Of a DNA stretch of 64,000 bases, positions 48,782 to 49,192 are shown piece after piece. The notes under the pieces were generated by a model. That model searched no databases. It saw nothing but the letters and a program-made list of their open reading frames with translations, and was not told the DNA's origin. The stretch's first letter is position 1, and the number at the start of each line of letters is the position of its first letter. Made by a program: the position numbers and the translations under genes. The stretch is taken from the NCBI GenBank assembly GCA_964016885.1, contig OZ024740.1, positions 429,040,001-429,104,000 of the forward strand. The letters run 5' to 3'. Source of the DNA: Eledone cirrhosa (lineage: Eukaryota).

Positions 48782-48896
48782 GTTGTAATATAATGAAACG
48801 AAATTTCATTTCTCACTCTTAGTACGGCACTCACTCAATATGCAAATTAGGCTGCAAAGCCGTTAATTTTCATAAGGAAAGTATATACTTTCGAAC

Positions 48897-48983
48897 GTTC
48901 AACCATCTGGCAGAAGAGTATACGGTGCTGATGATAGCTAACAAGCTTGAAACTAGTACATCGTTCCTGTGTCAGTGTTGAAC
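48897..48983 (+). ncRNA. Type I hammerhead with extended stem I (family G)
   Basis: acggtg-CTGATGA-t-agct(aaca)agct-t-GAAA-ctag-TA-catcgt; outer helices ctggca/tgtcag and gttcaac/gttgaac. Confidence 0.85.
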
Positions 48984-49192
48984 AAAAAGGTGACGTGGTT
49001 GCCTTAACACCGTATGGCATAAATCAGGCTGTCCGCTTGTTTACAAACGAACAAAGCGGGCGTTATAATAAACGTTCGCTAAACTGATACGTACATATAT
49101 ATATGTGTACCTGTATGTATATATATATATATATATGCATGCTACTGTACGTCTGTATATATACATGTATGTACGTATACATACATACTTAC

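Follow-up and report, generated by a model that had tools for sequence, protein, structure and literature searches.

The closest described relatives of the elements analysed here are the non-LTR retrozymes of coral, mussel and axolotl, which are non-coding tandem units of 170–400 nt with one canonical type I hammerhead each, a GC content under 45%, thousands of copies, strong self-pairing and a genome shared with Penelope-like elements (PLEs) (PMC7229834, PMC7761336). The model proposed for them is that tandem cDNA is made from circles (PMC7229834). In the canonical metazoan type I hammerhead, cleavage is poor in the monomer and good in the dimer; where helix III of this class is a 2-bp palindrome, the dimer is needed for good cleavage (PMC4209133). 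The footprint of EN+ PLEs is an insertion into (TA)n with partial tandems, 5' copies in inverted orientation and a tail on one side only (PMC8557442), and these elements and their pLTRs carry a hammerhead near the 3' end and a promoter-like block right after the tail (PMC8557442, PMC4209133). In Xenopus, pLTR-derived retrozymes occur as dispersed monomers, dimers and multimers, and their dependence on PLEs was proposed from co-occurrence and pLTR homology in a sample of 31 vertebrates, 3 insects and 1 anthozoan, with no mollusc (10.64898/2026.07.22.740005). Two other hammerhead repeats, newt satellite 2 (snRNA type, Pol II) and the schistosome satellite (Pol III), have a promoter inside the unit (PMC2220036). 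According to a 2020 review, retrozymes seem to have no promoters (PMC7761336), and PMC2837043 contains no passage on promoters.

The window analysed in this work is a stretch of 64,000 nt from the genome of Eledone cirrhosa. Two loci in it, described in an initial annotation as diverged members of a candidate undescribed ribozyme-bearing element, each represent a single copy of a protein-free repeat family, and the two families, A and B, are related. The kind itself is already known, as tandem units of 300–480 bp with a canonical type I hammerhead are what metazoan non-LTR retrozymes consist of (PMC7229834); the families fall within the genomic definition of non-LTR retrozymes and resemble those of coral, mussel and axolotl in organisation, hammerhead type, GC content, copy number, self-pairing and coexistence with PLEs. 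Searches of a literature collection with few subscription papers, on cephalopod retrozymes, promoters and mollusc U6, listed no description of these particular families, which Repbase or Dfam may hold as unknown or Penelope entries. We consider it likely, with a probability of about 0.82, that the loci are copies of non-LTR retrozymes that are cut by their hammerheads, circularised and copied into (TA)n by the reverse transcriptase (RT) and GIY-YIG endonuclease of a PLE.

Units, hammerheads and the rod

Family A units measure approximately 460–500 bp and are joined head-to-tail, and family B units measure 315 bp. The relatives C, D, E and F were found in the flanks. Unit lengths are 477 bp in A (L025), 467 bp in C, 315 bp in B and 310 bp in D; A and C units together span 459–541 bp, which is longer than the range given for metazoan retrozymes. 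Units of 310–467 nt have a GC content of 0.34–0.39, contain no ORF and lack LTR features. Arrays of 4 to 9 units were seen, and tandem units each bearing a type I hammerhead are present in arrays of A, C, D and B5. In a sample of insertions that was picked by search, non-random and cut at locus edges, at least two same-strand hammerheads were found in 17 of 62 insertions of family A, 4 of 12 of family C and 0 of 25 of family B. Family B proper formed only partial tandems among its 25 sampled insertions, and full dimers were found in its relatives B5 and D. Copies are dispersed and numerous in the 3.0-Gb genome, with 1964 candidates for the first locus and 2356 for the second (40 scored each). 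A pattern common to both cores had 12,157 genome-wide matches and a pattern of the upstream motif plus the core had 18,599, with 0 in the reversed-pattern control of each. The features of the two window copies are listed below.

48778–48838 (−): inverted 5' segment of the family A copy, consisting of the 58-bp tail (unit positions 391–451, by blastn to a natural unit), with (TA)n on its left
48829–49197 (+): family A retrozyme copy with one hammerhead, unit positions 1–393, ending at the short 3' end in (TA)n
48897–48983 (+): family A rod arm with type I hammerhead
within 48897–48983 (+): family A helix II with U.U base, and 2-bp palindromic helix III
48922–48927/48959–48964 (+): family A helix I
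48928–48934 and 48949–48952 (+): family A hammerhead core strands
after A48958 (+): predicted cleavage site of the family A copy (GUA)
48989–49003 (+): downstream hairpin, in a position shared with family B
about 49091–49119 (+): internal TA-rich stretch of the family A copy
61953–62196 (+): family B copy with one hammerhead, 5'-truncated, unit positions 79–322 of the 315-bp unit
61966–62054 (+): family B rod arm with type I hammerhead and 13-bp outer helix
61989–61994/62028–62033 (+): family B helix I
61995–62001 and 62015–62018 (+): family B hammerhead core strands
after U62027 (+): predicted cleavage site of the family B copy (GUU)
62062–62074 (+): GTGAC/GTCAC hairpin downstream of the family B rod

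The hammerheads annotated at both loci were borne out as type I cores at 48928–48958 (+) and 61995–62027 (+), each with the U.U pair at the base of helix II and the AACA-type loop II that had been noted. The outer helices (48897–48903/48977–48983 and 61966–61978/62042–62054) and the shared downstream block, a GTGAC hairpin at 48989–49003 and 62062–62074, were also confirmed. Helix I is present at both loci as claimed, with a length of 6 bp at each rather than the 4 bp drawn for the second, where it reads GTGGCT/AGCTTC with a U.U mismatch. Two sequence blocks thought to be shared turned out otherwise. GAGAGT, placed 5' of helix I at both loci, is found at the second alone (61981–61986), and the first has AAGAGT, a variant seen in 1 of 90 family A copies; since the GAGAGT form occurs in only 3 of 28 family B copies and is absent from the first locus, it was discarded as a family feature. 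The AGCCGTkAAT that precedes the second core is flanking sequence that matches by chance, because the matches to family B begin only at 61953. A different upstream block is found in 21 of 28 family B copies and AGCCGTkAAT in 1 of 28, the window copy, so that this block lies outside the second element and was rejected as a shared feature. The first element is larger than was claimed (48778–49197).

Folded as rods, the 101-nt stretches of the first and second loci gave z-scores of −2.4 and −4.0 on the sense strand and of −0.2 and −4.3 on the antisense strand, so the strand of the second locus is not fixed by folding alone. The whole unit adopts a branched multi-hairpin fold in which the rod is one of the arms. 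Circular folds of whole units are branched as well, with z-scores of −5.3 to −8.6 (against 30 shuffles) that are partly due to the TA-rich stretch. No hammerhead family was among the matches listed (150 of 161) in the Rfam search of the window.

The compensatory changes between the two loci had been taken as a sign of selection on RNA structure, and covariation among more copies supports this. In the 12 B-lineage sequences, scored on a structure drawn from the same sequences and with statistics that ignore relatedness, 87.8% of cells pair and 19 of 36 pairs have changes on both sides; this covariation was reached by 0 of 500 shuffles, and slid controls pair at 42–58%. Across 14 sequences from all families, with the structure again drawn from the sequences scored and relatedness again ignored, the helix I pairs changed on both sides in 6 of 6 cases and the covariation score was 0.56 versus 0.22 for shuffled sequences; the count of doubly changed pairs was matched by 80 of 500 shuffles and so lies within the shuffle range. 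Covariation of this kind supports the idea that the structure of the hammerhead rod is under selection.

The initial annotation had further suggested that a contact between loop II and the internal loop of helix I could make these fast hammerheads, unlike the minimal PLE motifs. The part of this claim that concerns the class stands. The core CUGANGA...GAAA...NUH is present with three helices, of which helix I is open, and a 6-bp helix I, a G-U-purine bulge on its 5' side and an AACA-like loop II are canonical traits, the bulge and loop II positions being kept across the 14 sequences. Helix I of 6 bp, helix II of approximately 4 bp and a short helix III agree with the definition in PMC4209133; in family B, helix III is longer and helix II consists of 3 bp plus U.U. 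The triplet at the cleavage site is GUA in 89 of 90 family A copies, and GUU in 22 of 28 and GUC in 3 of 28 family B copies. High speed is doubtful, because helix III of family A is a 2-bp palindrome, U.U lies at the base of helix II and GUU prevails in family B. The same U.U is present in axolotl HHR_Amex2, and an axolotl retrozyme with this pair showed weak monomer cleavage, 22% in 1 h (PMC7229834). In Xenopus, cleavage in vitro was seen in only 1 of 9 predicted retrozyme dimers (10.64898/2026.07.22.740005). In subfamilies B5 and B6 (L004:612–800 and L005) the core reads UUGAUAA, a variant that recurs in the two units of a dimer, and therefore a non-standard core has been amplified.

Twelve further hammerhead-like cores lie in the window, several of them near GIY-YIG fragments, and the core alone is therefore commonplace here. 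They include cores at 5447, 12454, 16249 and 51295 (+) and at 15141, 38600, 42169, 48017 and 51060 (−), and in most of them helix II is long and helix III is palindromic and A/T-rich. Those near GIY-YIG fragments are likely the 3' ends of other PLE families. A copy of a young PLE-type family occupies approximately 42707–46200 (+), with an RT fragment at 42707–43921 and a hammerhead with GUU at 46115; its relatives have open frames of up to ~960 aa and a tail of ~100 bp. The window also contains a 712-aa RT open frame at 58823–60961 (−), two broken, putatively LINE-type elements at 17159–19858 (+) and 29956–33536, and a full-length 5S rRNA match at 20130–20247 (−) of 90.9 bits, which is a dispersed gene or a pseudogene.

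Insertion ends and a probable link to PLEs

The ends of family A copies fall at two fixed unit positions, ~393 and ~451, and those of family B cluster at unit positions 295 and 322 (blastn). The tails are 58 bp in A and 27 bp in B, compared with 30–40 bp cited for EN+ PLEs (PMC8557442, PMC4209133) and ~100 bp in the local PLE. Termini abut (TA)n in 53 of 61 cases in family A and 15 of 18 in family C, and of the inverted pairs, 12 of 13 in A and 5 of 6 in C have the tail on just one side. The family B copy in the window ends at the long 3' end beside (TA)n and is missing the promoter-like block upstream. These families share with the PLE footprint its partial tandems, the inverted 5' copy, the tail on one side and the (TA)n target, and they also have the hammerhead near the 3' end and the promoter-like block right after the tail. 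Lack of an ORF and a canonical rather than minimal hammerhead distinguish the A and B units from EN+ PLEs. Such insertion ends, inversions and tails are mapped here for the retrozyme units themselves; the terms "inverted", "microsatellite" and "target site" do not appear in PMC7229834.

In an intact PLE family of the same genome, both a short and a long end are found in (TA)n, and the inverted locus L204 combines the two; a TATA-containing block directly follows the tail. The family is called a PLE because of its motifs and a weak match to a GIY-YIG fragment; Pfam and PDB searches with the intact ORF returned no named match. Its hammerhead is a different one, and it has no sequence homology to the retrozyme units (one family tested). 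The shared footprint supports the class of the mobiliser rather than a particular partner PLE. At this level, the insertion footprint gives well-supported, sequence-based grounds for pointing to PLE enzymes as the probable movers of the retrozymes. The link to PLEs thus differs in nature from that in Xenopus, as it consists of the insertion footprint, and a parent pLTR was not found in ~100 regions and one PLE family.

The earlier remark that neither locus is next to an ORF extends to the families: the unit contains none, no shared coding body lies upstream of 44 non-inverted copies, and no ORF with RT plus GIY-YIG is joined to a unit in ~100 sampled regions. At L066:4208–6607, a family A dimer is split in its TA-rich stretch by a truncated, oppositely oriented PLE, which means that retrozyme units themselves serve as PLE targets.

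The upstream motif and a predicted promoter

Families A, C, E and F carry TATGCAAAT(T/G)AG in sense orientation upstream of the ribozyme, 81–101 nt before the core, and this U6-type element is not present in B or D. The features concerned are as follows.

48839–48850 (+): TATGCAAATTAG, predicted promoter element of the family A copy, matching the motif of host U6, U6atac and RNase MRP genes
48877–48892 (+): TATA-like box within a short hairpin loop, 42 nt past the upstream element
L126, L127, L128, L146 and L147 (upstream 80 bp), L163–L170, L136, L138 and L171: loci in which the two snRNA-gene upstream motifs (U6-type and U1-type) were seen

In the host genome, TATG(C/G)(A/T)AAT(T/G)AG lies at −76 to −78, with a TATA box at −30, in the three top U6 loci, the top U6atac locus and the single MRP locus, and the 12-mer is absent from 10 lower-scoring dispersed U6, 3 U6atac, 8 U1, 4 U2 and 1 RNase P locus. 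U1 and U2 genes have a different element with a TCAGT core at −56 to −58 and a TATA-like box near −30. The RNase P locus has the U1-type TCAGT core, hinting at transcription of RNase P by Pol II. Long tandem arrays were seen of a variant U6 with a period of ~1.8 kb (G000:C19:31.78–31.84 Mb), of U2 with a period of 2.2 kb (C3:307.35–307.45 Mb) and of U1 with a period of 2.7 kb (C2:180.97–181.0 Mb). With the U6-type and U1-type upstream motifs of the genome defined, they are useful for tools for small-RNA expression.

In the retrozymes, the 12-mer outscores every other site in each of the A-side units examined (5 of 5), with p at 0.005, the lowest value attainable with 200 shuffles. The background amounts to 4 non-retrozyme matches in 874 kb. 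The 12-mer is unchanged across A, C, E and F, though its pairing partner and the adjacent helices vary; within the A lineage, its conservation is 0.96 versus 0.94–0.96 for its neighbours and is thus no better. The 12-mer pairs with downstream sequence as one arm of an RNA hairpin. Its spacing to the TATA-like box is ~40–44 nt, shorter than the 46–48 nt of U6-type genes, and the transcribed region is not free of T-runs, with T4 in 19 of 21 A1 units, T7 in 6 of 11 A1b units and T5–6 in 14 of 14 C units. Runs of T4–T7 should terminate Pol III. We regard the 12-mer as a likely internal promoter, predicted from its match to the host genes, with a TATA spacing and T-runs that misfit Pol III. Because the spacing is short, T4–T7 runs are present and the motif pairs in a hairpin, we lean towards an snRNA-type element that would drive Pol II.

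In the B-side units, a U1-like element precedes a TATA-like box by 26 nt. Tested by itself as a Pol II snRNA element, it is not significant (0 of 7 units). A composite model of U1-like element plus TATA box finds the same site in 6 of 7 B-side units with p values of 0.03–0.48, and this signal is only suggestive. The upstream motif of A, C, E and F contrasts with the view in the review that retrozymes seem promoterless (PMC7761336). It also differs from the newt and schistosome satellites (PMC2220036), as the predicted promoter motif matches host Pol III type-3 genes in one lineage and loosely matches U1/U2 in the other. Another repeat (L041, L043 and L060, and L031 near 61.2 kb of the window) has the same 12-mer with no nearby hammerhead and is possibly a second element that uses a U6-type promoter.

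A proposed cycle and its alternatives

In the cycle that we propose, an array with at least two hammerheads would be transcribed, likely by Pol II, from the upstream element inside a unit, with transcription starting just 5' of helix I. Two hammerheads, which in family A would probably act as a dimer through the palindromic helix III, would then release a monomer. The released monomer would include the promoter of the next unit, so that each new copy would bring its own. After ligation of monomers and dimers to circles, the PLE protein would nick (TA)n, prime at a fixed TA-like site in the RNA and copy round the circle, which would give partial units, arrays, inversions and the tail. The window copies, with one hammerhead each, would be dead ends.

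The arrays may retain a record of the template. Differences between units of family A have a median of 7 within an array versus 21 between arrays, and in the young family C the medians are 4 and 5, respectively. Rolling-circle copying of a heterodimeric circle predicts the alternation of two unit variants, and two alternating variants are present in three of the eight arrays with at least four cores, as repeated lengths of 467/480 in L124 and 484/502 in L080 and as a site pattern in L062. In L124, the inverted unit keeps the two-unit phase. The remaining five of the eight long arrays have no informative alternation. Duplication of two adjacent units at the DNA level is another possible source of arrays with a period of two. 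The alternating arrays are suggestive of a predicted dimeric circle, as rolling-circle copying would give.

An improbable alternative is that the units represent pLTRs, solo or in tandem, that belong to an autonomous PLE, and that the arrays are partial-tandem insertions, truncated before the ORF, with linear PLE RNA as the template. The order of hammerhead, short end, tail and promoter is indeed identical to that of the intact PLE, PLE fragments with hammerheads are common in the window, and Xenopus retrozymes are sister to pLTRs (10.64898/2026.07.22.740005). However, whenever a family A end runs beyond the tail (44 of 44 cases), it leads back into the start of the unit and not into an ORF, and the 5' flanks of the 44 non-inverted copies share nothing between regions. 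The 10 intact-ORF loci carry another hammerhead (~100 regions, one PLE family examined), and with this and the lack of homology the local intact family was rejected as the parent pLTR. The possibility raised in the initial annotation that the copies are ordinary pLTRs therefore does not apply to the one intact PLE family compared. The elements could also spread as PLE-dependent monomers made from linear read-through RNA, with no circle, and the arrays could result from subsequent DNA slippage or unequal crossing-over aided by the TA-rich stretch. The single hammerhead per strand in most sampled insertions (45 of 62 in A, 25 of 25 in B) speaks for this, but we find it unlikely, given that arrays and monomers share the same fixed ends, that arrays run across the inversion point formed at insertion, that the two-unit phase persists in the inverted unit of L124 and that B, C and D, which have no long pure TA run, still form partial or full tandems.

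For the upstream motif, a different role is a real possibility, if not the one that we favour: the U6-like sequence may be no promoter and may instead be kept as one arm of an RNA hairpin or because the PLE protein binds there, with expression by read-through from host genes. The spacing to the TATA-like box, which is 4–6 nt short, the T-runs and the downstream pairing all fit this, as does the statement that retrozymes seem to have no promoters (PMC7761336). Against it, the 12-mer is constant across A, C, E and F, in contrast to its pairing partner and all neighbouring helices, its orientation and approximate place fit a start just 5' of helix I, and newt satellite 2 provides a precedent for an internal snRNA-type promoter (PMC2220036). 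Tentatively, the hammerhead-cut and PLE-copied retrozymes of the preferred reading can be extended to a fuller account, in which the units would have captured host snRNA promoters (U6-type in A, C, E and F; U1/U2-type in B) and placed them within the unit, giving every circle cut out by the hammerheads a promoter for the copy that follows, and the PLE RT would copy monomeric and heterodimeric circles in rolling mode, leaving the alternating arrays.

For animal retrozymes, the papers cited here leave open which retrotransposon moves them and what transcribes them. The Eledone families offer an insertion footprint that points to PLE enzymes, a two-unit alternation that may document rolling-circle reverse transcription, and a candidate promoter of 12 bp, specific in sequence and common to host U6, U6atac and MRP genes and the retrozymes. 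Young, near-identical dimers and intact PLE ORFs coexist in the same genome.
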